Notes: a model not told the origin generated them from the sequence alone. 54,725 nucleotides of DNA from Bacilli bacterium (GCA_045601325.1 JAZRZI010000023.1:1-54725); one strand, 5' to 3'. Positions 10,783-41,610 are shown, counted from the first letter of the stretch. A program made the numbers and translations.

Positions 10783-11778
10783 TTATATTTTTTTATATCT
10801 TTGAATCTTACTTGTAGGCTTATCAGGGAATTCTAATACAACTAATCCTAATTTAATTGCAGGATCTAAATAATTCTTTCTAAAGTTTGCTCTATCAGAT
10901 AGTTTCAACAAACCTTGAATCTCTTTACTTGTAAACCATTTATTTCGGACAAGAACTCTTAACAATTTATTCGAATAAACGTTTGTGTTATTAATTGTTA
11001 ATGATGCTTGAGAGATTAGATCTTTGATCGAAAAATCAATCATCTTAAGCATAAATGTAATAAAAACAGTAGAATCACCATTTTTATTTGATTGAGCAAT
11101 AGCGTCATAGTATTCAGATTGATATTTTTTAATCAAGGATTCGATTGGAATAAATTCAAATATTGGTTTCCATTTACTCAAAATTAAATTTTGCCATAAT
11201 CTTGCCATTCTTCCATTTCCATCCCCAAATGGGTGAATAAAAACAAATTCATAATGAAAAACAGAAGACAAAATTAAAGTATTAACACTGTTAAAGTTTT
11301 CTTTAGCCCAAAGAAATAAATTAGTCATTAGTTCTGGAACCATTTTTCCTGGAGGTGCAATAAAAATTACATTTCCATTTCCATCAACTACGCCTTCACC
11401 ACCAATTCTATATTTTCCTGGATTCTTGACAACACCTTTCGTCATCACTAAATGAACAGATTTTAAATCAGTTTCAGAAAATGGATTTTTTTCAAATGCA
11501 ATATCATACGCGTTAATAGCGTTTTTGATTTCTAAAATATCTTTCTGCGGCCCAATTACATTATGACCATTAATTACATCTTCTACTTGTTCTAGAGATA
11601 ATGAATTAGCTTCAATAGAACAACTTGATTGAATAGACTTAATCCTATTTTGTTTTCTCAACATTGGAAACTTAGAAAGATTGTTAAAAGTTGAAATACT
11701 GCCAATCTTTTCCATAATAGAAGAGATGTATTCTAATATTTCATTTGTTAAAACAAATGGTGGTACATATTTTTCCAT
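10783..11778 (-). CDS. Fic-family protein with C-terminal winged HTH
   Basis: HPFGDGNGRMAR catalytic motif, SCSIEAN inhibitory-helix motif, C-terminal FRKNYLDPA...PDKPTSK.QRY. Confidence 0.92.
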   Translation of the reverse strand: MEKYVPPFVLTNEILEYISSIMEKIGSISTFNNLSKFPMLRKQNRIKSIQSSCSIEANSLSLEQVEDVINGHNVIGPQKDILEIKNAINAYDIAFEKNPFSETDLKSVHLVMTKGVVKNPGKYRIGGEGVVDGNGNVIFIAPPGKMVPELMTNLFLWAKENFNSVNTLILSSVFHYEFVFIHPFGDGNGRMARLWQNLILSKWKPIFEFIPIESLIKKYQSEYYDAIAQSNKNGDSTVFITFMLKMIDFSIKDLISQASLTINNTNVYSNKLLRVLVRNKWFTSKEIQGLLKLSDRANFRKNYLDPAIKLGLVVLEFPDKPTSKIQRYKKI

Positions 11779-11784
11779 AACAAT

Positions 11785-11812
11785 ATTATACCATTTAATC
11801 TTAATATTGCAA
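11785..11812 (-). promoter_or_regulatory. sigma70-type promoter of fic, leaderless geometry
   Basis: TTGCAA-16-TATAAT with an extended TG; ATG 6 nt after the -10; no SD. Confidence 0.65.
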
Positions 11813-11815
11813 CAT

Positions 11816-11850
11816 TATCTTGTAGGGTATCTTGTAGGGTATCTTGTAGG
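11816..11850. repeat. 12-bp tandem repeat (TATCTTGTAGGG x ~3)
   Basis: Units start at 11816, 11828 and 11840, directly upstream of the fic -35. Confidence 0.9.
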
Positions 11851-11896
11851 AAAATAAAAAAAATAGTTAATATTTTTATTAACTACTAATTCGATA

Positions 11897-12007
11897 AATG
11901 TGTTGTTGTAATGAAGTTAATAGTCGCTGTGTAATGAAGTTAATATTTTCTTTATTAATTATTATTAATACTTTTGTAACTTTACAATTTTATCCACCCT
12001 TGGGACG
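11897..12007. repeat. Island non-coding element, copy 1 (short form, two GTAATGAAG units)
   Basis: AATGTGTTG...GTAATGAAG...TTTATTAAT...TTATCCACCCTTG; homologous to 13417-13562 and 18887-19034. Confidence 0.9.
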
Positions 12008-12110
12008 TTTCAAATTTTAAATAAAAGCGGGGGTTCTTCCCGCACTTGGATGGATGGCCAGAGAATAAGTCTCTGTTCTCAACATAATATTAAAAATTAA
12101 TCGTTTGATT

Positions 12111-12317
12111 TCATTTTTTTCTTGTTTGAAAATCTTTATAAGTTAAGCAGTAATCTTCAATAAGTTTTACTAATTTTTCATAAGAAATGTCATTAATGCC
12201 TTTTTCAATTTTATTAATTGTAGATTTTGAGGTATATCCAAGTTTTTTAGCAAATTCTTCTTGACTTAATCCTTCTCTTTTTCTTAATTCTAAAATTAAT
12301 TCTCCTGCTGATTTCAT
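12111..12317 (-). CDS. XRE-family HTH protein
   Basis: LRKREGLSQEEFAKKLGYTSKSTINKIEKG; ATG 12317 follows the rhuM stop. Confidence 0.8.
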   Translation of the reverse strand: MKSAGELILELRKREGLSQEEFAKKLGYTSKSTINKIEKGINDISYEKLVKLIEDYCLTYKDFQTRKK

Positions 12318-12318
12318 A

Positions 12319-13314
12319 TTATTTATTTCTCTTTTCAATTAAGAATAATGAATTCATATTTTCAAGGTATTTTTTCTCTACTTCAGTCGGATTATCAGTA
12401 AAACGTTTTCTAAACTTCTCATATTCTTCTTTTGCGTGTTCAATAGCTTTTTCGTGACTAATTAACCCTTTGTTATTTAGAACGTCTTTTCTAGTCATTC
12501 TTAAGAAATAATCAAGTTCATTTGACCAATCCGCCATAGTCATTACTTTTTCTTCTTTTGCCTGTAATTCTGCAAAATCAAGATACAAAGATACCAATCG
12601 ATTGAGTGTATCTAATTCGTCTTGATTTAAATAATTTTTTGCAATTAAGGCATCATTGAGAATTGGGTAATTCCCTGAAAAAGAAGTTAAACCCATAAAA
12701 TCTTTTTCAGCTTTAGCTCTATCTGCAATAATCTCCGCAACAGTTTTACCAGAAACCGCCCAGTGCATTTTATTTTGAATTGTTTTAAAAACTGTAATAG
12801 CAACTTCTGATTTAGAATCATAGTCAACACTAGTAGCAAAAATATCAAGAACTTGTCTCCAAAAAACTTTTTCACTGCTTCTAATATCGCGAATTCTTGA
12901 TAAAAGTTCCTTAAAGTATCGACCTCCACCAGCTTCTTTTAGTAGATTGTCATTTATAACAAATCCTTTATTAAGATATTCGTTTAATGTTTCTGTTGCC
13001 CATTGTCTAAATGCGGTTCCAATATTACTTCTAACACGATATCCAATTGCTAAAATCATATTTAAATTATAATGTTTAACATTATAACCTTTGTTATCTC
13101 TAGCAGTTATTCGGAAATTCCGAACAACTGAGTTTTCATCCAATTCGCGCTCTTCTAAAATATGTTTTATGTGTTCAGAAATATTACTTTTACTAGATTG
13201 ATAAAGTTCAACAATTTGATCCTGAGATAGCCAAATATCTCCATTATTTATTTTTACTTCTATTTCCGTTTTATCGTTAACTTTGTAAATAATTATTGGA
13301 TTTTGCACATTCAT
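12319..13314 (-). CDS. Virulence RhuM-family protein
   Basis: IWLSQ..I.ELY, YNL..I.AIGYRV.S, FRQWAT..L.EY..KGF and RIRDIRSSEKVF motifs. Confidence 0.92.
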   Translation of the reverse strand: MNVQNPIIIYKVNDKTEIEVKINNGDIWLSQDQIVELYQSSKSNISEHIKHILEERELDENSVVRNFRITARDNKGYNVKHYNLNMILAIGYRVRSNIGTAFRQWATETLNEYLNKGFVINDNLLKEAGGGRYFKELLSRIRDIRSSEKVFWRQVLDIFATSVDYDSKSEVAITVFKTIQNKMHWAVSGKTVAEIIADRAKAEKDFMGLTSFSGNYPILNDALIAKNYLNQDELDTLNRLVSLYLDFAELQAKEEKVMTMADWSNELDYFLRMTRKDVLNNKGLISHEKAIEHAKEEYEKFRKRFTDNPTEVEKKYLENMNSLFLIEKRNK

Positions 13315-13379
13315 TTTTGCTCCTCCTAATATATTTTTATTATATCACAAAGTTGATTATTAATCTACTTAATTAGTAA

Positions 13380-13406
13380 TTAAAAAACGGCTGAAGTATC
13401 AACCGT
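13380..13406 (-). terminator. Intrinsic terminator after element copy 2
   Basis: ACGGTTGA-TACT-TCAGCCGT plus T-run. Confidence 0.75.
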
Positions 13407-13416
13407 GTTTTACTTT

Positions 13417-13562
13417 AATGTGTTGCTGTAATGAAGTTAATAATTTTTGAAGGTGTGCGTAATGAAGATGATAGTCGTTGTGTAATGAAGTTACTATTTT
13501 TTTATTAATTATATTAATACTTTTACAACGTTGCTTTTTTTATCCACCCTTGTAACGACTCT
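13417..13562. repeat. Island non-coding element, copy 2 (three GTAATGAAG units)
   Basis: Units at 13428, 13459 and 13482; AT-rich palindrome; TTATCCACCCTTG. Confidence 0.9.
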
Positions 13563-13575
13563 AAATGGAACACAA

Positions 13576-14094
13576 TTATTCTTTCATTTGATTAATTTGA
13601 TTTGCTGCAGCAGCAATAATTTGCTTTTTAAAACTATCTGGGTCTGGATAGTCTTCTTTATGATCTTCAAAATCTTTAAGTTTTGCAACCATTTTATCGA
13701 GTATATCGACATATTTATAGAATCCAATTCGATAATAATATTCTGCTCCCATTGCAACAAATTCATTTTCTTGTTGCCTTGGCAAAACAGTAATAACTTG
13801 TTCATCTGATAAAGCAGAAACGCAGTTCACAATTAACTCACCTTTATTCTTTGAATTATTGATTGGTCTTGATTCTTGTGAACCACCATAAATTTCGTCC
13901 ATTGTTTTTCCAGTAGCGACTGCAATTTTGTATAAAGAGTGCAAACCAATATTCCTATTTCCATTCTCATAAGCTGAAATTTGAGTAATTGAAATACCAG
14001 TTAAATCATGTAATTTGTATTGCGTTAATTTTGCTTCTTCGCGAGCTTTTTTAATTCTTTTTCCTAATTCAAATGAATTATCGATGTTTTTCAT
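13576..14094 (-). CDS. XRE-family transcriptional regulator
   Basis: LGKRIKKAREEAKLTQ..L..LTGIS...ISAYENG; RBS AAGGAGG. Confidence 0.88.
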   Translation of the reverse strand: MKNIDNSFELGKRIKKAREEAKLTQYKLHDLTGISITQISAYENGNRNIGLHSLYKIAVATGKTMDEIYGGSQESRPINNSKNKGELIVNCVSALSDEQVITVLPRQQENEFVAMGAEYYYRIGFYKYVDILDKMVAKLKDFEDHKEDYPDPDSFKKQIIAAAANQINQMKE

Positions 14095-14117
14095 AAGGTT
14101 AACCTCCTTAAATATGT

Positions 14118-14170
14118 ACTAATTGTATAACTCTTAACTAATTGTAGAACATAATTAACTAAATAGTCAA
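14118..14170 (-). promoter_or_regulatory. xre promoter overlapped by putative operator repeats
   Basis: TTGACT-18-TACAAT; ACTAATTGTA at 14118 and 14137, ACTAAATAGT at 14158. Confidence 0.55.
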
Positions 14171-14299
14171 AATACATTTACCTCTTCGCAAAATATAGCT
14201 GGGGAATTTTTCTTATCTTTTTCGACATCTAGTTCCGGTTTTTTGATTTTTTAAAATGTAATTGCATACAAAAAAGTATGCAGAAAGGAGGTAAATCCC

Positions 14300-14740
14300 A
14301 TGGAAAGCAATTATAAACCAGGAGGAGGAAACAAACCTCAACCTTATGTACCTGCTGGCAACGGAGAAAAAAGTGGCGAATACACTGACAAGTCTACATG
14401 TGAAAAGAAAAATAGAGTTTTACATTGTTTTATAAGAAATGTTCCTCGAAAATGTAATTTCAGAAATTCAAAGCTTGTTCAAACAGTAACGGACTATAGT
14501 TGACGGGCAGAACATGTCAACATCCCATCAAAACATAAAGCAAATTCAGTGATTAAGAAAATTGTTAATGGTTATGTTGTGGCAGAAAGGTATTATAATA
14601 ATAAAGGTGAAGCGTACTTAGACATCGACTATACATGTCACGGTAGACCAAACGTTCATCCTGAAGTTCCACACATTCATAAATGGACCAAGGATGAAAA
14701 TGGTAATTTGCACAGAGGTAAATGGGAGAATTTTCAATGA
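14300..14740 (+). pseudogene. Polymorphic toxin (Ntox24-like predicted RNase) interrupted by an in-frame TGA at 14501
   Basis: ORFs 14300..14503 and 14549..14740 share one frame with a single stop; RBS AAAGGAGGT; IPSKHKANSV...RYY...G...DIDY..HG.P..HP.VPHIHKW motif. Confidence 0.7.
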
Positions 14741-14982
14741 GAAGAGAATGTATTGAAGAACTAATAAATGGCAATCGTGAAATCATTTTCCGCTACCACA
14801 ACCAAAGATATTCAATTGGCTATTATAATGATAATAGAGAAAAATATATCTCTGTAGGCGAATATAACGGTGATTTCATAGATGTTAAAAATGCTGATGA
14901 AGTGTTTAATCTTAAAATTGGAAATCGAACGTTAGAAGACATATTTAGTTCCTTGCCAGATTCTGCATTTGACATTTATTAA
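14737..14982 (+). CDS. Putative cognate immunity protein
   Basis: ATGA overlap with the toxin stop; 81 aa with an EI.F.Y....YSI...DE....KIG.RTL.DI pattern. Confidence 0.65.
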   Translation: MRRECIEELINGNREIIFRYHNQRYSIGYYNDNREKYISVGEYNGDFIDVKNADEVFNLKIGNRTLEDIFSSLPDSAFDIY

Positions 14983-14989
14983 GATTTAG

Positions 14990-15013
14990 AGCCATTCTTG
15001 AGAATGGCTTTTT
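14990..15013 (+). terminator. Intrinsic terminator
   Basis: AGCCATTCT-TG-AGAATGGCT plus T-run. Confidence 0.75.
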
Positions 15014-15189
15014 ATTTTCAAAAACACCTAGTATATTAAGAAATTAAAATTTTTATATATAAAAAAGGGGGTTTGGTTCGAATCCCCTTGATATCTCGAA
15101 TGTCTTTCTCAAACGCGTTTGATACTAACTTTTATTTACTCAAACGATATTTGATACCAGTTAGATGGATTTTTCTAATTAAAAAACAT

Positions 15190-15642
15190 TTATTTATGGA
15201 TATAAATTCTACTAATGTCTCCACTATCACATTTAGTCATGGCCAAAAATGTAAAACCATATCGTTCATAAAATCCAACATGATCAGTAATCAAATACAC
15301 AGGAGAAATCCCATTCATTTTTAGATCGTCTACCGCATGATTAAGAAGCTTTCCTGCTATTCCGTTTTTGCGATATTCTTCTTCAACATAGACCGCGCAA
15401 ATATTTGGGGTCAAATCTTTTCTTTTGTGGAAGTCATTTTCTATAACGCTTAAACCTCCCACTATCTTATTATTATCTAAGCAAAGATACCAACCTAAAT
15501 TAGTCTTATTTCTAATATTATCATTCATGCATTCTAAGTAAGCTTCTTCACGAATGCCCCACTTTGAAGAAAACCAAGTAGCGGCTTCTTCTACTATTTC
15601 TAGTTTTTCTTTAATTGTGATGAATTTTAGATTATCAAACAT
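15190..15642 (-). CDS. GNAT-family N-acetyltransferase
   Basis: VYVEEEYRKNGIAGKLL and FYERYGF motifs. Confidence 0.9.
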   Translation of the reverse strand: MFDNLKFITIKEKLEIVEEAATWFSSKWGIREEAYLECMNDNIRNKTNLGWYLCLDNNKIVGGLSVIENDFHKRKDLTPNICAVYVEEEYRKNGIAGKLLNHAVDDLKMNGISPVYLITDHVGFYERYGFTFLAMTKCDSGDISRIYIHK

Positions 15643-15651
15643 GAACTTTCT

Positions 15652-16740
15652 TTATTTAATATGTATTGCCTTTCTTATATATTTTATTTTACTTATTAAA
15701 TAAGTAATTAGATACGATAAAACAACGACAAGAACATATATTAGCAAAAAATATAAAATTGGATGGATATTTAGTTTTTCAGGAGTTAACCACACTCTAG
15801 TAAAGATTTCCAAAATAAATACATGAATCATATAAACTCCGAATGATCCATTTGATAAAAATGAAAGAATTTTTGAATTGTGTGTCTTATCTTTACAAAG
15901 ATTGCTTATGAACAAGTACACTGCACCTCCATAAAGAATTACAGGTAACGCTAAGTCAGCAGACAAGTAATTTCTAATGGTAGGAATATCGTTATAGACT
16001 ATTTGAATTGTAACAATCTGGGTAATGAGAGCGAGTAGTCCAACAACGTATATAACGATTCTATATGGCTTTTTTATTTCAAAATTATCAAATAACCAAC
16101 CTAATAAAAAATACGCAACATAGCCACCTAAACCTTCAAGATGAAATTTACTAACAAACGTAGTAAAAAGAGTTGGATGATTCGCCGAATTCACCACAAA
16201 TACATTAAGAGTCTTCATTAAAAATGTATAAATCATTGCTGCCAAAACAATTCCAACGACATATTTAACATTATCTTTTTTAAGAAAGAGTCTAAAAATA
16301 GGTAGCATTAAATACAATCCAAACACCATAAACATATACCAGAGGTGAGGATAGTCGGATCCTTTGAACGTCAATATATACTCAACAAAATTCTCAAATT
16401 CAATAGCCTGATGAGTCATTGCGGGAAGAATTACTGAATAAAACAAAGCATAAAAAGCTAACCATCCAACGAGTAATAATCCTACCCATAATAAAGATTT
16501 CTTATAGAAAGTTTTTGCATCAAATGGTCTTTCTTCTTTTAAAAGTAAGGCGCCAGAAAGCATCACAAAAAGCGGAATGCATGCTCTACAAATTCCATTA
16601 GGAATATTACCCATTTGAAATTCTAATGTTGATGTATCTGGAAATTGAATTACCAAAAATGCAGATACATGGCACATCAAAACTAAAAAAATCGCAACGA
16701 TTCGAATAATGTCGTATTTTAAAATTCTATTTCTTTCCAT
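15652..16740 (-). CDS. Acyltransferase-3 family membrane O-acyltransferase (WecH-like)
   Basis: DIIRIVAIFLVLMCH, PLFVMLSGALLL, HLWYM and SFGVYMIH motifs. Confidence 0.9.
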   Translation of the reverse strand: MERNRILKYDIIRIVAIFLVLMCHVSAFLVIQFPDTSTLEFQMGNIPNGICRACIPLFVMLSGALLLKEERPFDAKTFYKKSLLWVGLLLVGWLAFYALFYSVILPAMTHQAIEFENFVEYILTFKGSDYPHLWYMFMVFGLYLMLPIFRLFLKKDNVKYVVGIVLAAMIYTFLMKTLNVFVVNSANHPTLFTTFVSKFHLEGLGGYVAYFLLGWLFDNFEIKKPYRIVIYVVGLLALITQIVTIQIVYNDIPTIRNYLSADLALPVILYGGAVYLFISNLCKDKTHNSKILSFLSNGSFGVYMIHVFILEIFTRVWLTPEKLNIHPILYFLLIYVLVVVLSYLITYLISKIKYIRKAIHIK

Positions 16741-16767
16741 ACTTTTTAAAGTATAAAACAGAAAATT

Positions 16768-16834
16768 AAAAAAGTCTCCCTTATTTAATCTACAAACTTT
16801 AGTTTATAGAGGCCAAATATAGGGGACAATTTCA
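16768..16834 (-). mobile_element. Orphan IS3-family-like (IS150 group) left end, copy A
   Basis: Minus strand TGAAATTGTCCCC...TTTGG plus an internal hairpin; direct repeat of 20587-20653. Confidence 0.55.
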
Positions 16835-17006
16835 GATTCGATGGAAGGAATTGTAAGAAATGATACAATTGCATATCCCCTTTTGAATATACCTAATTTT
16901 TCAATGAATATAGTAAAACCCGTCTTTTTTCTGGCTTTTCAATCATTTTTGCTCAAAAAATGCAAACGCAAAGGAAATAAGTGCAATTAATCGTTATAAA
17001 GTGCAA

Positions 17007-18083
17007 TTAATTTGCAACAATTTTTCTTCTCAAATAATTATATTCTGAGTAATTAATTTTTTTGTCATTTTGAAGACGCCCAACAACTATAGCTGGGCAA
17101 ACATCATTTTTAATCGCACATCTTTTGATAGATTGTTCATTAATTCCAGATGCAATCAAGTCTTCATAGGATGATTCTGAAATAAGACGATTCCTTGCAA
17201 AATCATTAGCATTATCTTCGTCAGAAAGATCAACAAATGCAGAATCGTTTCTCTTTGACAATAAATGGCCTAATTCATGAAATAACGTAAACCAAAAACC
17301 ATCTTCAAATTTACCTCTAATTGTGGTACATAAAGAAATCTTATTATTTACAGTTTTAATATAGCCTTTCACAGGTAATGAAGGTAAACTCTCAACAACT
17401 CTATAATTTATTCCACATTGGTACAAAATGTTAGTAACTTTATCAATCGATTCTTGAATATTATCCGTATTGGAACATTTTTTTATTTCATCTAAAGATG
17501 ATTTTAATTTATTTAAATCAAATTCATTTGGGTTACTAATAAAATCGGTTTGAATTTGGCATATTCGCAGCCAAGAATATAATTTGTAATGATCAATCGA
17601 TTTGCATGTTTTATCCATTCTAAAAGCAATCTTAGGCAAAACGCATGCTAATACTTCCTTAGTTTGCAATAAGTTTGAAAGTGAGGCGAATTTTCTTAAT
17701 GCCAAAATATTTTCGATTTCATTTCTCTTGTCTTCAAAATATCCTAGAGCAATTAAATTTTTAATAGGAAAACATTTATAAGCTTTCTTCTCCTCATCGG
17801 TTATATTTTCTCTAATACGAATTGACTCCATTTTTTCATCATAAATATTTTGACGATTAATCCAAAAACTCGCTTTTGGTTTTAAAACATTTTCTAGCTT
17901 CTTTGCAAACTGAACAGAAATCCCTTTTTTGCCATTAATAATCAAATTGATTTGTGTTTCGCTAGTTTGTGTTTTTAAAGCCAATTCTTTTTGAGAAATA
18001 TTATATTGCTCTAAAAGTTCAAGTAATGTATCTCCTGGATGAGAGATAAATTCAGTGGATAATCCAATTTGTGTTTCCGCCAT
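17007..18083 (-). CDS. higA: HigA-family antitoxin fused to an ImmA/IrrE-like metallopeptidase domain
   Basis: HPGDTL.E.L....SQKELA...FWINRQ N-terminus; FWFTLFHELGH; IVVGRLQ. Confidence 0.88.
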   Translation of the reverse strand: MAETQIGLSTEFISHPGDTLLELLEQYNISQKELALKTQTSETQINLIINGKKGISVQFAKKLENVLKPKASFWINRQNIYDEKMESIRIRENITDEEKKAYKCFPIKNLIALGYFEDKRNEIENILALRKFASLSNLLQTKEVLACVLPKIAFRMDKTCKSIDHYKLYSWLRICQIQTDFISNPNEFDLNKLKSSLDEIKKCSNTDNIQESIDKVTNILYQCGINYRVVESLPSLPVKGYIKTVNNKISLCTTIRGKFEDGFWFTLFHELGHLLSKRNDSAFVDLSDEDNANDFARNRLISESSYEDLIASGINEQSIKRCAIKNDVCPAIVVGRLQNDKKINYSEYNYLRRKIVAN

Positions 18084-18408
18084 GATAATCAATAACTCCT
18101 TCTATTTCAAAATTTGTAAACGTTGATAAATTCTTTATAGTATTTTCATCAAAATTTGCTTGTATCCTAAGTATCAATCTAACGTTTGCGGTTAAGTCCC
18201 ACCCAATGCACCCATCAAAATTTTCTTTAAGCATATGCGGATTGTCAATTCCACAATCTAATAACTCTTGTGCATTATTTAGTGATGCAAGCTCGTCTTT
18301 ACGTTGAGAAAGTTTTTTTGCTAATTTATTACCATAATCTTTATTTACAGCCCTAAGATTGTTCCAGTAATATTCAACATTTTTGTTTAAATATGAGATT
18401 GTACACAT
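18052..18408 (-). CDS. higB: HigB/RelE-like toxin
   Basis: K.YG...AKKL..R..EL, PH.LK....G...DL..N.RLI and IDYH motifs; lies upstream of higA. Confidence 0.8.
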   Translation of the reverse strand: MCTISYLNKNVEYYWNNLRAVNKDYGNKLAKKLSQRKDELASLNNAQELLDCGIDNPHMLKENFDGCIGWDLTANVRLILRIQANFDENTIKNLSTFTNFEIEGVIDYHGGNTNWIIH

Positions 18409-18414
18409 GACATT

Positions 18415-18442
18415 ATTATATAATAACCAATAACGAAGTCAA
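18415..18442 (-). promoter_or_regulatory. higBA promoter, leaderless geometry
   Basis: TTGACT-16-TATAAT with the ATG 6 nt downstream. Confidence 0.7.
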
Positions 18443-18517
18443 CAATTTTATTTAATTATTTGTTAAATTATTTTGTTTTACTATTGTCGTATTTCTTTAA
18501 CAAGTAGTTAACGTTTA

Positions 18518-18721
18518 TTATTTATTTTTCTTAAGCCAATTTTCACGACATTCAGGACAACAAAATAATGAATTTGATTCTGCTGGATAAAGAGATCCGC
18601 ATTCAACACATTTAACGCATGCATAATTCATAATGGTTCTAACGTAATTACACCACTCACCAAATCCGAATTTGTTCTTTCTAAAAATGCACTTTTTCAT
18701 CATGTAATTAATTGCTCTCAA
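18518..18721 (-). CDS. Small Cys-rich Zn-ribbon protein
   Basis: CVECG...FCCPEC motif; start uncertain, probably MMKK near 18703. Confidence 0.5.
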   Translation of the reverse strand: MRAINYMMKKCIFRKNKFGFGEWCNYVRTIMNYACVKCVECGSLYPAESNSLFCCPECRENWLKKNK

Positions 18722-18845
18722 ATTGTTTTTCTACAAGTCTTTTTTGAATACCCCCATTATTAGTATGCATACACCCCTTAAAAATTTGATTCAAATCGTT
18801 TTTTCACACCTTAACTTGATCGTTAAAATTATGTTAAAAAAGCAT

Positions 18846-18876
18846 AAAAAAACTCGATTTTGGATACAAATCGAGC
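18846..18876 (-). terminator. Intrinsic terminator after element copy 3
   Basis: GCTCGATTT-GTATCCA-AAATCGAGT plus T-run. Confidence 0.75.
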
Positions 18877-18886
18877 ATTTTTTGTT

Positions 18887-19034
18887 AATGTGTTGTTGTG
18901 ATGAAGTTAATAGTTTTTGAAGGTGTGTGTAATGAAGATGATAGTCGTTGTGTAATGAAGTTGCTATTTTTTTATTAATACAATGTATTAATTCTTTTAC
19001 AATGTTGCTATTTTATCCGCCCTTGTGACGACTC
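18887..19034. repeat. Island non-coding element, copy 3 (three units)
   Basis: Units at 18898 (GTGATGAAG), 18929 and 18952; TTATCCGCCCTTG. Confidence 0.9.
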
Positions 19035-19047
19035 CAACTAGAATCTT

Positions 19048-20340
19048 CTAGTCTTTTAAACAACCTATTGGAACAACGAAGACACCATCATCTCTTTTAT
19101 ACCCGTATTTTGTACCAGTAATAACGATTTTAAGGTCAGGTAATCTAAGTGGCGTTTGGTTTTCATTCTTATTATGGTCAATAATTAGCTTTTCTATTTC
19201 TAACAAATGTTTGGCCCCTTCCTCTATTTCAAATGAACCTAATTTAAACTCAATTAAAGCATATCTACCATCACGCAAATGTAGAACACAATCTGCTTCA
19301 AGTCCGTATTTGTCGTGATAATAGGAGATTTCTCCACCACCACTTTGTGAATAAACTTTTAAATCTCTAATGCAAAGATTTTCAAAAATAAAGCCAAATG
19401 ATTTCAAATCATAATTGTAGTAGGAAGGCGATCCACCTAAAGCTGCAACAGCAATTGAAGGGTCAACAAATTCTCTTTTTCTTCCACTTCTCATTGCAGA
19501 ATTAGATCTAATGTTTGGACACCAACCATATAAATCTTCAACAATAAATAATTTTTCCAATATAGAAATATAGTCATCTAAAGTTACATCACTTATACGA
19601 TTAGATGATTCGATATCTTTTAAAATATTTGTTCCTTTTGCTAGTGTTGAAATATTTCTAGCATAGCTTTTTAATATCGCTTTCATTGTTTGTGGATTTC
19701 TTTTTACATCATCGATTGAAAACATATCTTTTTTGTATATTTGATTAAAATAATCCCTTGGAATTTCAAGCTGAGCCTCTTTATCAGTAAGTAAAATACT
19801 TTCTGGCCAGCCTCCACGGCATGCAGCAAAAATCAAATCATCAATGGATAAATCTGATGTACAACCATTCGCCAATGTCTCTTTTCCATCAAAAAGTTCA
19901 ATTAGTGAAACTGATCCATTTGACTCATTTGATTCAAACAAGCTCATCGGATACATTTTTAATTCCGAAATTCTTCCGGTTCCAGTATGCAATGTTTTTA
20001 CGTTTTTTGATGTAGAACCAGTTAATATAAAATGACCTTGTCCGCCATTTTCGTCACAATATGTTCTAACTGCATCCCATATAAAAGGAATATCTTGCCA
20101 TTCATCAATCAATCTTGGCTGTTCTCCATTTAGAATTATTGATGGATTAATTTTTGCGGAATATTCTAATTCTTCTTTATTATTTTGCTTTTGCAATAAA
20201 ATTAAACTTTTTGCTTTTTGCTTTGCAGTTTCAGTCTTGCCACACCACTTAGGACCAACAATATTTGTGGCTCCAAAAGCTCTTAATTTTAAATCTAACA
20301 ATTTGTCAGCAATTCTTTTATAGTAAACTTTGTTTTCCAT
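19048..20340 (-). CDS. AAA_14 ATPase with DUF4143 (PD-(D/E)xK-like) C-terminus
   Basis: GPKWCGKT, LIDEWQ, FILTGS, HTGTGR, GFIFENLCIRDL and EAD...IEFK motifs; RBS GAGGTG before ATG 20340. Confidence 0.92.
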   Translation of the reverse strand: MENKVYYKRIADKLLDLKLRAFGATNIVGPKWCGKTETAKQKAKSLILLQKQNNKEELEYSAKINPSIILNGEQPRLIDEWQDIPFIWDAVRTYCDENGGQGHFILTGSTSKNVKTLHTGTGRISELKMYPMSLFESNESNGSVSLIELFDGKETLANGCTSDLSIDDLIFAACRGGWPESILLTDKEAQLEIPRDYFNQIYKKDMFSIDDVKRNPQTMKAILKSYARNISTLAKGTNILKDIESSNRISDVTLDDYISILEKLFIVEDLYGWCPNIRSNSAMRSGRKREFVDPSIAVAALGGSPSYYNYDLKSFGFIFENLCIRDLKVYSQSGGGEISYYHDKYGLEADCVLHLRDGRYALIEFKLGSFEIEEGAKHLLEIEKLIIDHNKNENQTPLRLPDLKIVITGTKYGYKRDDGVFVVPIGCLKD

Positions 20341-20361
20341 ATAATTCACCTCATCAATATC

Positions 20362-20430: not shown

Positions 20431-20586
20431 TGAAATTTATTTAAATGTATAATGCTCTCTCGAGCGAAGTCCTAAAAAATAAATAAAGACAGGAGTTCTT
20501 CCGCATTATGATGGAAAATAGATATCTAATTCCTATACTTAAAATATATTTACACAAAAAATCCCCTATCCAATAAAGGATTTCAT

Positions 20587-20653
20587 AAAAAAGTCCTCCT
20601 TATTTAGTCTACAAACTTTAGTTTATAGAGTCCAAATAATGGGGACAATTTCA
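20587..20653 (-). mobile_element. Orphan IS3-family-like left end, copy B
   Basis: TGAAATTGTCCCCATTATTTGGAC...hairpin...AAGGAGG, then ATG 20586 with only 6 codons before a stop. Confidence 0.6.
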
Positions 20654-20845: not shown

Positions 20846-21420
20846 TTATTTCTCAATAATCAATTTGATTGCTTTGCCATCCGTAAGCCAGCCAATCTTC
20901 TTTTCTTGGAAGGTTTTATCCTCTTTTGCAAAGTTGAAATCCTTTAATAATTGAGTAACTCCTCCTAGATATTTACGAGCTGGAGAGAAAGTTGCTTCAT
21001 ATTCTTTTGTGCCATTAACAACCACCTTAACATTATGTTTGTTTTCATTATTTTCAAGCTTGTTAACTATTGTTGATGGTATTGAAATAATACGTGCTCT
21101 TATATCGTTGACAGTAACCATTTTAAAAACGTAATCTTTAGTTTCATCAGTTTCCATTGAGGCTTCTTTAAAATCAGAATCTCTATTCATAAATTCGGAT
21201 AAAGCAACACCACTAAATACTGGCATGTAACTGAAGCCAATTCCTTTGTCGATTAAAATCGACACTAAGTCCAAACCATCAATAACAATGACCAGACGAT
21301 GAGGATCCTTTGTTAATGCCTCGTTCTTAGCCTTGTCGCTAACATGTGAGGTTGTTATAAACAAGCCCTTTTCATTCGTAAGCAAAGTTCCACGAAGAGC
21401 ATCTATCTTCGACGCAACGC
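20846..21420 (-). pseudogene. Mrr-like restriction endonuclease, C-terminal fragment
   Basis: IDALRGTL...KGLFITTS...A...A...VIDG.DLV is the second half of Mrr_cat; the D..Q.K catalytic part is absent. Confidence 0.7.
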
Positions 21421-21755
21421 AAATCGGTGTTTTTAAACCAAGGATTAACTCCTTCAACTAAATGAAATTTATCAACCCATAAGAACAGATAACCGCTTGG
21501 GATCAAGCACCTATTTATTTCCTTAATAAACTTAAGAATTATTTTTACGTCCATTTGTGTCAACGAACTTCTATCTTTTCCTCTAGAAACACCTTCGTTT
21601 CCATAGGAAAGCTTATCTAATACGCCACGATATTGAGGATCAAAAAATAAGCACTTGATAGAGTTGTCTTCTATGTTTTTCAAAAGTACCACTCCATCTA
21701 TTTTGTTTTTATGGTTTGTCTTTATGTTTAAAGTGCAATTTTCTTTAATACCCAT
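21421..21755 (-). pseudogene. N4/N6 DNA methyltransferase (beta class), N-terminal fragment
   Basis: DG..LL..I.DNSI...FFDPQY (motif IV), EI.R.L.PSG.LFLW; no FxGxG motif because the gene is truncated. Confidence 0.8.
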
Positions 21756-21841
21756 TTACGAAATCCGACCTAACCCAAATGTATACTAATTATATTTCAG
21801 TTGGGTTTATATGCAACGCAGATGTGTATTAAAATGCTCGC

Positions 21842-22153
21842 ATGAGCGTACTAGATAAAATAAAGAAATTACAAAAGGAAAGAGGCTGGTCGACTTACAA
21901 ACTCGCTTACGAAGCAGGATTAACTCAATCGACTTTATCTAACATGTTTGCCAGGGGCACATGTCCAACGGTTGATACTCTGGAAAGAATTTGTGATGCT
22001 TTTGGCATTTCACTTTCAGAGTTCTTTAACGAAAATGATAAAGTGATTCATGTTTCTAAAGATGAGTTAGAATTGCTTGATGGTTATCGTTCATTAACAG
22101 AAAAAGAAAAAGATGCTGTTAAATCGATGGTTTCAGCATTAAAGCATAAATAG
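21842..22153 (+). CDS. XRE-family repressor (ICE/prophage type)
   Basis: ERGWSTYKLA..AGL.QSTL...PT..TLE.IC.AFGISLSEFF; LL..YR.L...EK. Confidence 0.9.
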   Translation: MSVLDKIKKLQKERGWSTYKLAYEAGLTQSTLSNMFARGTCPTVDTLERICDAFGISLSEFFNENDKVIHVSKDELELLDGYRSLTEKEKDAVKSMVSALKHK

Positions 22154-22172
22154 TTACTTTATCCAAATATTA

Positions 22173-22194
22173 TAAGAGGCCTGCCTCTTTTTTT
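22173..22194 (+). terminator. Intrinsic terminator
   Basis: AAGAGGC-CT-GCCTCTT plus T-run. Confidence 0.65.
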
Positions 22195-22200
22195 ATTGAA

Positions 22201-22355
22201 ATACTAGAAAACTATTTAAGGTCAAATCGTGTTCTAGAATTAAGATATAATTCCACGGAAGAAGAAATTGATGCATTGATGCCTTGGAATTTAGAAAAAT
22301 AACTCGGACGTTCGATGGTTCGAGTTTTTGTTACCTGTAAAACATTAACACTTAC
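22201..22355 (+). mobile_element. IS66-family 3' relic (TnpC C-terminus plus right end)
   Basis: Frame YL...VL...EEIDALMPWNLEK* (stop at 22300) resembles the IS66 I.ELLPWN tail; ends in CACTTAC, the complement of GTAAG. Confidence 0.65.
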
Positions 22356-22384
22356 ATAAAAATACATTAAAAATGCATAAAAAA

Positions 22385-22429: not shown

Positions 22430-22506
22430 TGGCGCGCTCGAGACGATTCGAACGTCCGACTCCCACCTTAGGAGGGTGGTACTCTATCCAGCTGAGTTAC
22501 GGGCGC
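22430..22506 (-). tRNA. tRNA-Arg (anticodon CCT)
   Basis: 77-nt cloverleaf GCGCCCG...CCACC-CTCCTAA-GGTGG...GTTCGAATC...GCGCGCCA. Confidence 0.97.
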
Positions 22507-41475: not shown

Positions 41476-41594
41476 AAAAATTCCTCCCGCTAACGGAGGA
41501 AAAAATCTTCATTCCTACGCCAGCATTATCTGGATCAGGTAAGGTCGACTCGAAGAAGAGTCCTCTCAGCCAGGTTCGCCTAGCTCCCGTAAAC
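41476..41594 (-). ncRNA. TPP riboswitch with an RBS-containing expression-platform hairpin
   Basis: GGGAGC...GGCTGAGA...GACC..ACCTGATCCAGATAATGCTGGCGTAGG; then TTCCTCC-GTTAGCG-GGAGGAA plus T-run before the ATG. Confidence 0.95.
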
Positions 41595-41610
41595 AATATA
41601 TACCGAATTT

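Follow-up and report, generated by a model that had tools for sequence, protein, structure and literature searches.

A repeated element with a tRNA-Arg-like box and a triple-repeat core separates defence modules behind a tRNA-Arg gene in a Bacilli genome

What are the repeated sequences that divide the defence genes behind a tRNA-Arg gene of a Bacilli bacterium (GCA_045601325.1), and how did they come to stand between otherwise unrelated modules? The genes lie in a stretch of 54,725 nucleotides (JAZRZI010000023.1:1-54725), referred to here in its full length as the window, in which three minus-strand copies of one element belong to a single island behind tRNA-Arg; the host genome is 1.44 Mb in 57 contigs with 33.5% G+C. 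Our reading, with about even confidence, is that serial insertion at tRNA-Arg left the copies behind as junction relics, and that each comprises a decayed tRNA end and a probably transcribed triple-repeat unit.

An earlier analysis, here called the sequence-only reading, had described three copies sharing one orientation and layout, which is borne out by the sequence and by blastn against the whole genome (82-88% identity): copies 2 and 3 are 88% identical over 160 nt, and copy 1 matches them at 82-86% over ~100 nt. It placed the copies correctly, although homology starts a few bases earlier than it had drawn them, at 12014, 13564 and 19038 (Table 1). Read on the minus strand, each copy runs from CAAGGG(T/C)GGATAAAA through a TATTAAT...ATTAATA palindrome to CTTCATTAC units, two in copy 1 and three in copies 2 and 3 (the third unit of copy 3 is CTTCATCAC), and then to CAACACATT. 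The distances from upstream stop codons that had been estimated as ~13 nt (copies 2 and 3) and ~100 nt (copy 1) were measured, from the original boundaries, as 13, 13 and 103 nt: copy 2 follows the xre stop, copy 3 follows the AAA_14-DUF4143 stop (its tRNA-like box lies 9 nt past it), and copy 1 follows the stop of a small xre gene and that gene's own terminator. The copies are not scattered through the genome; blastn against the 57 contigs found no fourth copy, and the sole additional match is 30 nt of the AT palindrome at C18:9358-9393, ahead of a protein gene. With up to two mismatches allowed, the window contains 14 matches to the 13-mer unit, whereas 100 shuffles gave 4.8 on average and 11 at most; eight of the 14 matches fall within the three copies, every one on the minus strand.

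The element is an apparently undescribed, lineage-restricted family, of which the core of repeated units is the defining part. Exact-pattern scans recovered one more full copy, in a horse-faeces Bacilli metagenome-assembled genome (MAG; locus L031), together with a variant that has TTAACTTCGTTGCG units at the same 23/30-31 spacing and other terminators, at five Bacilli MAG loci and on one viral contig. A metagenome scan added four loci, and one of its contigs bears the two variants on the same strand, 3.1 kb from each other. The model R1, derived from sequence only and built from 12 copies, was run on two genome sets, each time with Infernal's stricter filters; it matches 15 of 151 genomes of the host's Bacilli family (13 of 48 genera, with one to six copies each) and none of 110 genomes from the order's seven other families. 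Copies frequently cluster on one strand, as in G149, G130 and G107, the last of which has one group of three within 2.8 kb and another within 6.7 kb, at distances of 0.75-5.5 kb within arrays, and in every locus examined their orientation is that of the flanking genes. Alignment of 31 R1 matches (A3) distinguishes four unit types, A to D, the units inside one copy being all of one type; the core consists of two or three TTAACTTCRTTRC-like units spaced at 22-23 and 30-31 nt and ends abruptly at ...ACA, and the third unit and the tail (..AAGACA/..AACACA) are its most conserved parts. In types B-D the core occurs without the tRNA-like box discussed below.

Known families gave no match; a match to an insertion sequence (IS), Rfam or plasmid family was what the sequence-only reading had named as refuting it. 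The sole window match to Rfam 15 at the gathering threshold is a riboswitch outside the copies, and relaxing the threshold to E values up to 5 over 11700-19200 returned only a chance match to CRISPR-DR61 (11777-11813, E 0.51). No blastn match was found among 50,697 phage or 72,556 plasmid records, and literature searches, made by word and none by sequence, returned no description of the element. RNAalifold predicts no pairs over the 31 copies, and hence no conserved fold, and there is no attC-like hairpin and no set of R''/L''-L'/R' boxes. Eight of 13 pattern matches in unrelated phyla look like chance or like unrelated 23-nt tandem repeats. In a Bacteroides MAG (L034:60-200), GTTAACTTC(R)TTGCA-like units recur every 23 nt, four to five of them, and one more unit is inverted; this may be a chance occurrence or a distant relative of the element's unit. 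An 8.5-kb, phage-like viral contig (L045/L121) has, close to its end and following a holin gene, a type-B copy with two units that is cut off by a 20-nt inverted fragment of a tRNA T-arm and acceptor.

The association with tRNA genes is of two kinds. The first is one of position, in that arrays stand behind and are co-oriented with tRNA genes in the window and at 10 further loci; the gene is tRNA-Arg at L078, L080, L081, L084, L057, L061 and L064, tRNA-Met at L077 and tRNA-Glu at L049, and the tRNA-Arg genes that head arrays have the anticodon CCT, TCT or TCG. The second is one of sequence. The string CAAGGG(T/C)GGAT, noticed earlier, belongs to a longer stretch, the box (GTTGGAGTCGTCACAAGGGCG in copy 3), which corresponds to tRNA-Arg positions 54-74, comprising the T-loop, the 3' strand of the T-stem, the 3' acceptor strand and the discriminator. 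In all seven type-A copies tRNA-Arg is the best ungapped match among 82 distinct tRNAs, and the register is constant, from tRNA position 54/55 to 70/74 and 42-46 nt before unit 1. Identity is 16-17 of 20-21 for copy 3 and L031 and 13/16 for copy 1; shuffles reach the box score in 0-3 of 40 trials for six copies and in 10 of 40 for copy 1. The box has the orientation of the tRNA-Arg gene 3.4-10.5 kb upstream, and G083 has a box and a 2-unit copy 230 nt downstream of an intact tRNA-Arg(TCT). Scanned across species representatives, the box pattern gave four loci, of which the horse-faeces MAG is real and three are chance matches in GC-rich DNA.

Insertion next to tRNA genes is wider than the element. 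Some genomes have a spacer of 67-176 nt between tRNA-Arg(CCT) and tRNA-Ala(GGC), others one of 0.3-7 kb; the element model found no match in most genomes of the second kind, and each insert whose start was read opens with a terminator. The flanks of tRNA genes are therefore general hotspots in the family, whether the element is present or not. In the host genome tRNA-Ala lies at the start of another contig (G000:C25:74-216), so the island may extend past the window's contig. Just behind the window's tRNA-Arg, a stretch of ~120 nt (22238-22357) is 87-94% identical in at least eight other family genomes and contains a plus-strand hairpin (22301-22326) as well as 12 nt (TCGGACGTTCGA) that match the tRNA-Arg T-arm in inverted orientation; the adjoining 21409-22237 is 98% identical to G063:C24.

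The same downstream modules are joined to tRNA-Arg in some genomes and to the element in others. A module made of a terminator and HTH213 comes after tRNA-Arg(TCG) in L081 and after a copy in L079; a module composed of a terminator, three CCTACAAGATA units and fic follows tRNA-Arg(TCG) in G149 (L085), copy 1 in the window and a type-C copy in G107; and a 75-nt hairpin/terminator module follows tRNA-Arg in L112, L113, L115 and L117 (partial) and a copy in G107 (L078:8850-8925). For one and the same downstream module the join point is the CCA end of tRNA-Arg or the ACA end of the copy. The 75-nt module has a hairpin with apex ACTTTG-ATA-CAAAGT followed by a terminator and is 89-99% conserved; in several genomes from a single genus just 1 nt separates it from the tRNA-Arg(TCT or CCT) in front of it.

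Comparison with two metagenome loci locates the breakpoints more closely. L048 is 94% identical to the window over 13417-15504, with 98.5% identity across the 600 nt that precede copy 2 and on through its box; the element itself is 88% identical, the 85-92% found past the tRNA-like box being the level between any two type-A copies, and the downstream sequence is unrelated. In L050 identity is 97% upstream of copy 3 and 95% across the element, and downstream nothing is shared with the window. By these two comparisons breakpoints therefore fall in two places, one directly past the tRNA-like box and the other at the ACA end. The boundaries of modules in other strains match the positions of copies, as seen in L048, in L050 and for the fic, HTH213 and 75-nt modules. 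A DUF4160-DUF2442-like gene pair with a palindromic promoter/operator (ATATCACGGAACAGTGATAT) also lies directly behind different tRNA and tmRNA genes (L084:10230-10960; L107-L111), with a different terminator ahead of it each time, and stands behind a tRNA, a tmRNA or an element copy according to the genome.

How might such an arrangement have arisen? We envisage that accessory (defence) modules were inserted serially at tRNA-Arg, by the tandem accretion known for tRNA and tmRNA islands. The start of each copy would be the displaced, decayed 3' end of tRNA-Arg, from T-loop to discriminator; the next part would be a promoter-like AT palindrome, and the end a core of two or three units, with ACA as its last bases and a terminator 6-12 nt further on. 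Modules consisting of a terminator, a promoter and one or more genes are joined to the end of the core just as elsewhere they are joined to the CCA end of tRNA-Arg, and in this respect the core behaves in the genome as the end of a tRNA gene does. Past events of the integrase type at the tRNA T-loop presumably created the boxes, and the copies may now act as portable homology or docking points for module exchange. The sequence-only reading had listed stacked ends or res sites of mobile elements at tRNA-Arg among its options; the tRNA-like boxes, the arrays behind tRNA genes and the boundaries at copies lend direct support to the former, and the res-site part is not supported. A more far-reaching version strikes us as unlikely: here the triple-repeat core, as a small RNA-gene-like unit, would imitate the end of a tRNA gene in portable form, and its 3' end would be where terminator-promoter-defence-gene modules dock by preference. 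If it held, gut Bacilli without integrons would be building integron-like arrays of defence cassettes behind tRNA-Arg with no dedicated recombinase resident in the genome, through homologous exchange between copies or enzymes acting in trans.

Tandem islands marked by displaced 3'-end repeats, some of them without integrase genes, have been described, for example in the ssrA islands of Dehalococcoides and in streptococcal tandems of integrative and conjugative, integrative and mobilizable and cis-mobilizable elements, which include integrase-less cis-mobilizable elements (PMC4383910; PMC3146451; PMC5704250). A displaced, decaying tRNA end that starts in the T-loop is a known mark of integration at tRNA and tmRNA genes (PMC4383910; PMC3146451; PMC5704250). 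The likeness is that the array begins immediately behind a tRNA gene, in the orientation of that gene, that the repeats contain a copy of the tRNA 3' end starting in the T-loop with extra conserved sequence around it, and that accessory modules, some without recombination genes, lie between the repeats. The differences are that the tRNA copy here is decayed (16-17 of 20-21) and lacks CCA, that no integrase module is present in any array examined here, that the repeat is ~150 nt and mostly composed of a triple-repeat core that also exists without a tRNA remnant, and that most breakpoints fall at the far end of the core and not in the tRNA-derived part. Islands anchored in tandem at tRNA genes are thus already known, and what appears to be new is the element family and the tRNA-like box with its triple-repeat core.

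Several observations weigh against serial insertion at tRNA-Arg as the origin of the copies. In a classical displaced fragment the host flank follows directly, whereas here the remnant is followed by ~130 nt of spacer and core, and most synteny breaks lie at the far end of that core instead of at the remnant; moreover, homology that ends at the edge of a common element is also expected from plain homologous recombination. The box is degenerate, its gapped local alignment to the genome's 30 tRNAs is not significant, and 29 of the 82 tRNAs compared are tRNA-Arg, which favours Arg as the best match. Types B-D have no tRNA remnant, and an intact tRNA end followed by units (strict pattern GCCA, 5-65 nt, two units) occurs in none of 401 family genomes. 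A consensus promoter scan gave 54 sites against 65.6 in shuffles, no excess, such a scan being uninformative in AT-rich DNA, and RNAalifold gives no conserved RNA fold among the copies. Nor is a recombinase at hand: there is no integrase (PF00589 or PF00239) in the window's island and none among 63 open reading frames (ORFs) in four of the eight stretches around arrays, which contain one small resolvase and one IS3 transposase (rve). G165 and G083 hold just two Xer-sized tyrosine recombinases, and neither G107, which has six copies, nor G083 has a serine recombinase.

The dearth of recombinases bears equally on the proposal that the island is an active integron-like cassette system, in which a trans-encoded recombinase would insert circular cassettes (terminator, promoter, genes and element) at the 3' end of tRNA-Arg or of an element. 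Such a system would explain the one-strand arrays with 0.75-5.5 kb between copies, the cassette-typical cargo (GNAT, toxin-antitoxin-like pairs, Fic, RhuM and restriction-modification), the identical modules behind a tRNA end or an element end, and the uniform type of the units within a copy, as for sites that co-evolve with a protein. As in integron attC arrays, elements of ~100-150 nt lie directly behind genes in one orientation and separate small accessory cassettes of similar cargo. Unlike integrons, however, the loci here have no IntI gene and no attC hairpin, core sites or R/L boxes, the cassettes bring their own terminators and promoters, and the array is anchored at a tRNA gene. No dedicated recombinase co-occurs with the element in the island, in the scanned array stretches or in the genomes G165, G083 and G107, and the host genome's three tyrosine recombinases, three serine recombinases and four IS110 genes are all on other contigs. 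The cassettes are not discrete, since L048 and L049 share just part of the window's module; the DUF4160-DUF2442 pair stands behind tRNA and tmRNA genes without the element, as do the 0.3-7 kb inserts of the tRNA-Arg/tRNA-Ala spacer in many genomes without a model match. This proposal, which the sequence-only reading had put forward with the recombinase encoded elsewhere, is not supported in the form given there, and we regard it as very unlikely.

The host's IS110-family transposase genes are on contigs C9, C31, C35 and C53 of G000, three of them at contig starts, and the 3-kb contig C20 consists of a pair of neighbouring genes for large serine recombinases (518 and 448 aa) that is also present in G027 and G165. 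Ends of an IS, a miniature inverted-repeat transposable element or a transposon, including the Tn7/Mu type, were considered and rejected: the genome contains no inverted partner or cluster of the element, and the IS110 genes are elsewhere. By eye, and against known consensus sequences, none of dif/Xer site, Fur box, cre site, LexA box or anticodon-loop mimic fitted.

The layout of the core raises a different question, namely whether it is a gene for an RNA. A permissive definition of intrinsic terminators failed to discriminate (28 of 31 copies against 179 of 400 random sites), and a strict rule, hairpin plus T-run, was used instead. By this rule 18 of the 26 copies that reach the 3' tail are followed by a terminator, compared with 41 of 1000 random sites; the foot of the hairpin lies 6-12 nt past the copy end (22 nt in one case), and looser terminators are visible by eye in several of the eight copies that the strict rule missed. 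At the host genome's own tRNA genes 13 of 28 have a terminator, offset by 5-13 nt, and it is this agreement in placement that leads us to liken the organisation of the core to that of a small stable-RNA gene. Some B and C copies are preceded ~40-45 nt upstream by a conserved promoter-like (-10-like) leader, TTATCATTTTAGTGT..., recognised by eye. Two metatranscriptome runs from one bovine-gut sample, available as contigs, cover relatives of the xre module and of the ATPase gene, and these contigs break inside the repeats. We incline, by a narrow measure, to the view that the core is transcribed and acts as RNA.

It does not follow that the element is nothing but an RNA gene. It could, as the sequence-only reading had also proposed, be a multicopy trans-acting small RNA (sRNA) or protein sponge, each copy being an independent gene of ~100-115 nt. 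Its three CUUCRUURC motifs would then be single-stranded and would titrate a protein or base-pair with a target, and its place at the joints would be incidental, sRNA genes being, in the manner of tRNA genes, conserved anchors beside variable DNA. Multicopy sRNA families with repeated single-stranded motifs are exemplified by LhrC1-5 and by sponges of the CsrB/RsmZ type, and like these the element has several homologous copies, some in tandem, three short motifs and an intrinsic terminator. Unlike them it has no conserved hairpins, its close copies carry unrelated terminators, its distribution is patchy and mobile-like, and it is known from sequence alone. The sharp ACA end with a terminator 6-12 nt on, as at tRNA genes, the leaders of the B and C subtypes, the occurrence of the type-A palindrome ahead of a protein gene, the nearly G-free and unstructured type-A core and an orientation that always matches the neighbouring genes would all suit an sRNA. 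The evidence from terminators cuts both ways. The sequence-only reading had seen an unrelated terminator behind each copy, and the three do differ within the window; those of copies 2 and 3 nonetheless belong to families that recur behind other copies, and some terminator families are common to several element types, as an sRNA gene would allow. Unrelated terminators on very close copies would be unusual for sRNA genes, however. The TTGATAC motif of one such family is no signal in itself, since in the host genome terminator hairpins hold 21 of its 320 occurrences, no more than for control 7-mers, and we read its recurrence as common ancestry of some terminators and not as a general signal. Also unfavourable to a free-standing sRNA family are its presence in only 15 of 151 genomes, and the fact that the tRNA-like box and the junction equivalence require a history of recombination in any event, while the unit spacing (22-23/30-31 nt) and the dyad AAC-NNN-GTT suit DNA sites equally. 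On balance this alternative seems to us rather unlikely.

A type III toxin-antitoxin RNA does not fit. ToxI-like RNAs consist of near-identical tandem repeats of 34-45 nt ahead of a ToxN/AbiQ-type toxin; the units here are 13-16 nt in unlike linkers, and the downstream genes encode Fic, RhuM and a Zn-ribbon protein.

The suitability of the units as DNA sites deserves consideration in its own right. Each is an imperfect 13-bp dyad, [G/T]YAAC-NNN-RTTRC, with conserved half-sites around a variable central triplet (TTC, GTC, TCC, TCT or ATC). Their spacing corresponds to ~2 and 3 helical turns, and in type A a fourth, compact dyad (CAACGTTG or TTGTAA-AG-TTACAA) lies upstream. That the core serves in some way as a protein-binding array on DNA is a possibility that we view with some doubt. 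The fuller proposal is that a dimeric protein binds the units as double-stranded DNA, and that they would thus form a tripartite operator, iterons or arm-type sites; candidate binders are an Xre-type regulator of the island and the integrase or excisionase of incoming elements. In our estimation this proposal is unlikely. Xre genes directly precede five of the ~20 copies inspected by eye in scanned loci, but there is no constant neighbour family, the upstream genes including FeoB, Lgt, PBECR4, C39 peptidase and ATPase genes. The array stands behind genes and before a terminator, and not in a divergent promoter region, and such a proposal leaves the strict link to terminators and the strand asymmetry of the core unexplained. 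The origin of a plasmid or phage with iterons was dismissed, there being neither an adjacent rep gene nor a match to plasmid or phage records.

For arm-type sites the closest comparison is the P' arm of lambda-type attP, which has an IHF site and three arm-type sites at ~10 bp spacing. The element resembles it in having a tRNA-derived core sequence (the box), an AT-rich stretch and three direct repeats within ~90 bp, and differs from it in a spacing of 23 and 31 bp, in the existence of types B-D without such a core sequence and in that no integrase with an arm-binding domain was found nearby.

Whichever function the core proves to have, R1 and the tRNA-like box offer a sequence handle for mapping where defence modules join in an uncultured, small-genome family of gut Bacilli about which little is known and whose main hotspots of gene exchange are the tRNA 3' flanks. 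Should the core be an RNA, it would represent a new multicopy sRNA family tied to mobile defence modules; should it be a recombination or docking site, it would exemplify the growth of a cassette array without an integron.

Table 1. Features of the tRNA-Arg island in the window, in minus-strand order from the tRNA gene.
Feature	Position	Strand	Remarks	Source
tRNA-Arg(CCT)	22430..22506	-	Island head; all three copies downstream on the same strand	ARAGORN
AAA_14-DUF4143 ATPase	19048..20349	-	PADLOC PDC-S01	Pfam, PADLOC
Copy 3	18887..19038	-	Type A, three units: tRNA-like box, AT palindrome, core	blastn
Copy 3 tRNA-Arg-like box	19018..19038	-	17/21 identical to tRNA-Arg(TCT) positions 54-74; 0/100 shuffles reach the score	
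Copy 3 core	18889..18975	-	Three units at 23 and 31 nt spacing, ACA end; 72.5 bits	
Copy 3 intrinsic terminator	18852..18876	-	Terminator family also behind a type-B copy in L081	
Module after copy 3	17007..18721	-	Zn-ribbon-like protein, 67 aa (under Pfam cut-off); 118 aa without family; helix-turn-helix (HTH) protein, 361 aa (PD-Lambda-2_B-like)	
Rest of the module of copy 3	13576..16740	-	Acyl_transf_3, GNAT, small ORFs, Xre 172 aa	Pfam
Copy 2	13417..13564	-	Type A, three units; tRNA-like box 13547-13564, core 13419-13505	
Copy 2 intrinsic terminator	13387..13406	-	TTGATAC-loop family common to copies of types B, C and D	
Module after copy 2	12111..13314	-	RhuM (PDC-S05) and Xre 75 aa; own terminator 12027-12043	
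Copy 1	11897..12014	-	Type A, two units; weaker tRNA-like box 11999-12014, core 11899-11954	
Copy 1 terminator hairpin	11864..11885	-	AT-only; one module with CCTACAAGATA x3 and fic	
Fic	10783..11778	-	PADLOC SoFic; last module; homology to G107 and G149 stops at the fic stop codon	

The gene content of the island (Table 1) has the defence flavour that had been ascribed to it, as judged by PADLOC and Pfam, although the 'higBA' and 'toxin-immunity' genes of the sequence-only reading were not reproduced by Pfam. PADLOC matches in the island are SoFic, PDC-S05 (RhuM), PDC-S01 (AAA-DUF4143) and a PD-Lambda-2_B-like HTH protein. Between the ATPase gene and tRNA-Arg, at 20846-21755 on the minus strand, there are apparent remnants of a restriction-modification system: a 127-aa fragment matches a type II methyltransferase (PADLOC MTase_II, positions 11-115 of 228) and overlaps a 203-aa ORF that carries just the end of an Mrr-type nuclease domain.

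A second repeat is present twice on the minus strand of the window, at 16767-16834 and 20586-20653, the two copies being 91% alike and each comprising a ~25-bp imperfect hairpin and a T-run. One lies ahead of the acyltransferase gene and the other upstream of the AAA-ATPase gene, and the repeat also occurs in a metagenome contig directly after tRNA-Glu (L049:2746-2820). The riboswitch matched by Rfam is a thiamine pyrophosphate (TPP) riboswitch at 41494-41600 on the minus strand, with 55.6 bits against a gathering score of 54.3. Finally, the three tandem CCTACAAGATA units (~11816-11850, minus strand) lie directly upstream of the fic promoter TTGCAA-16-TATAAT and are kept, with variants, ahead of fic homologues in G107, G149, G083 and G114; they are probably the operator of the fic module.

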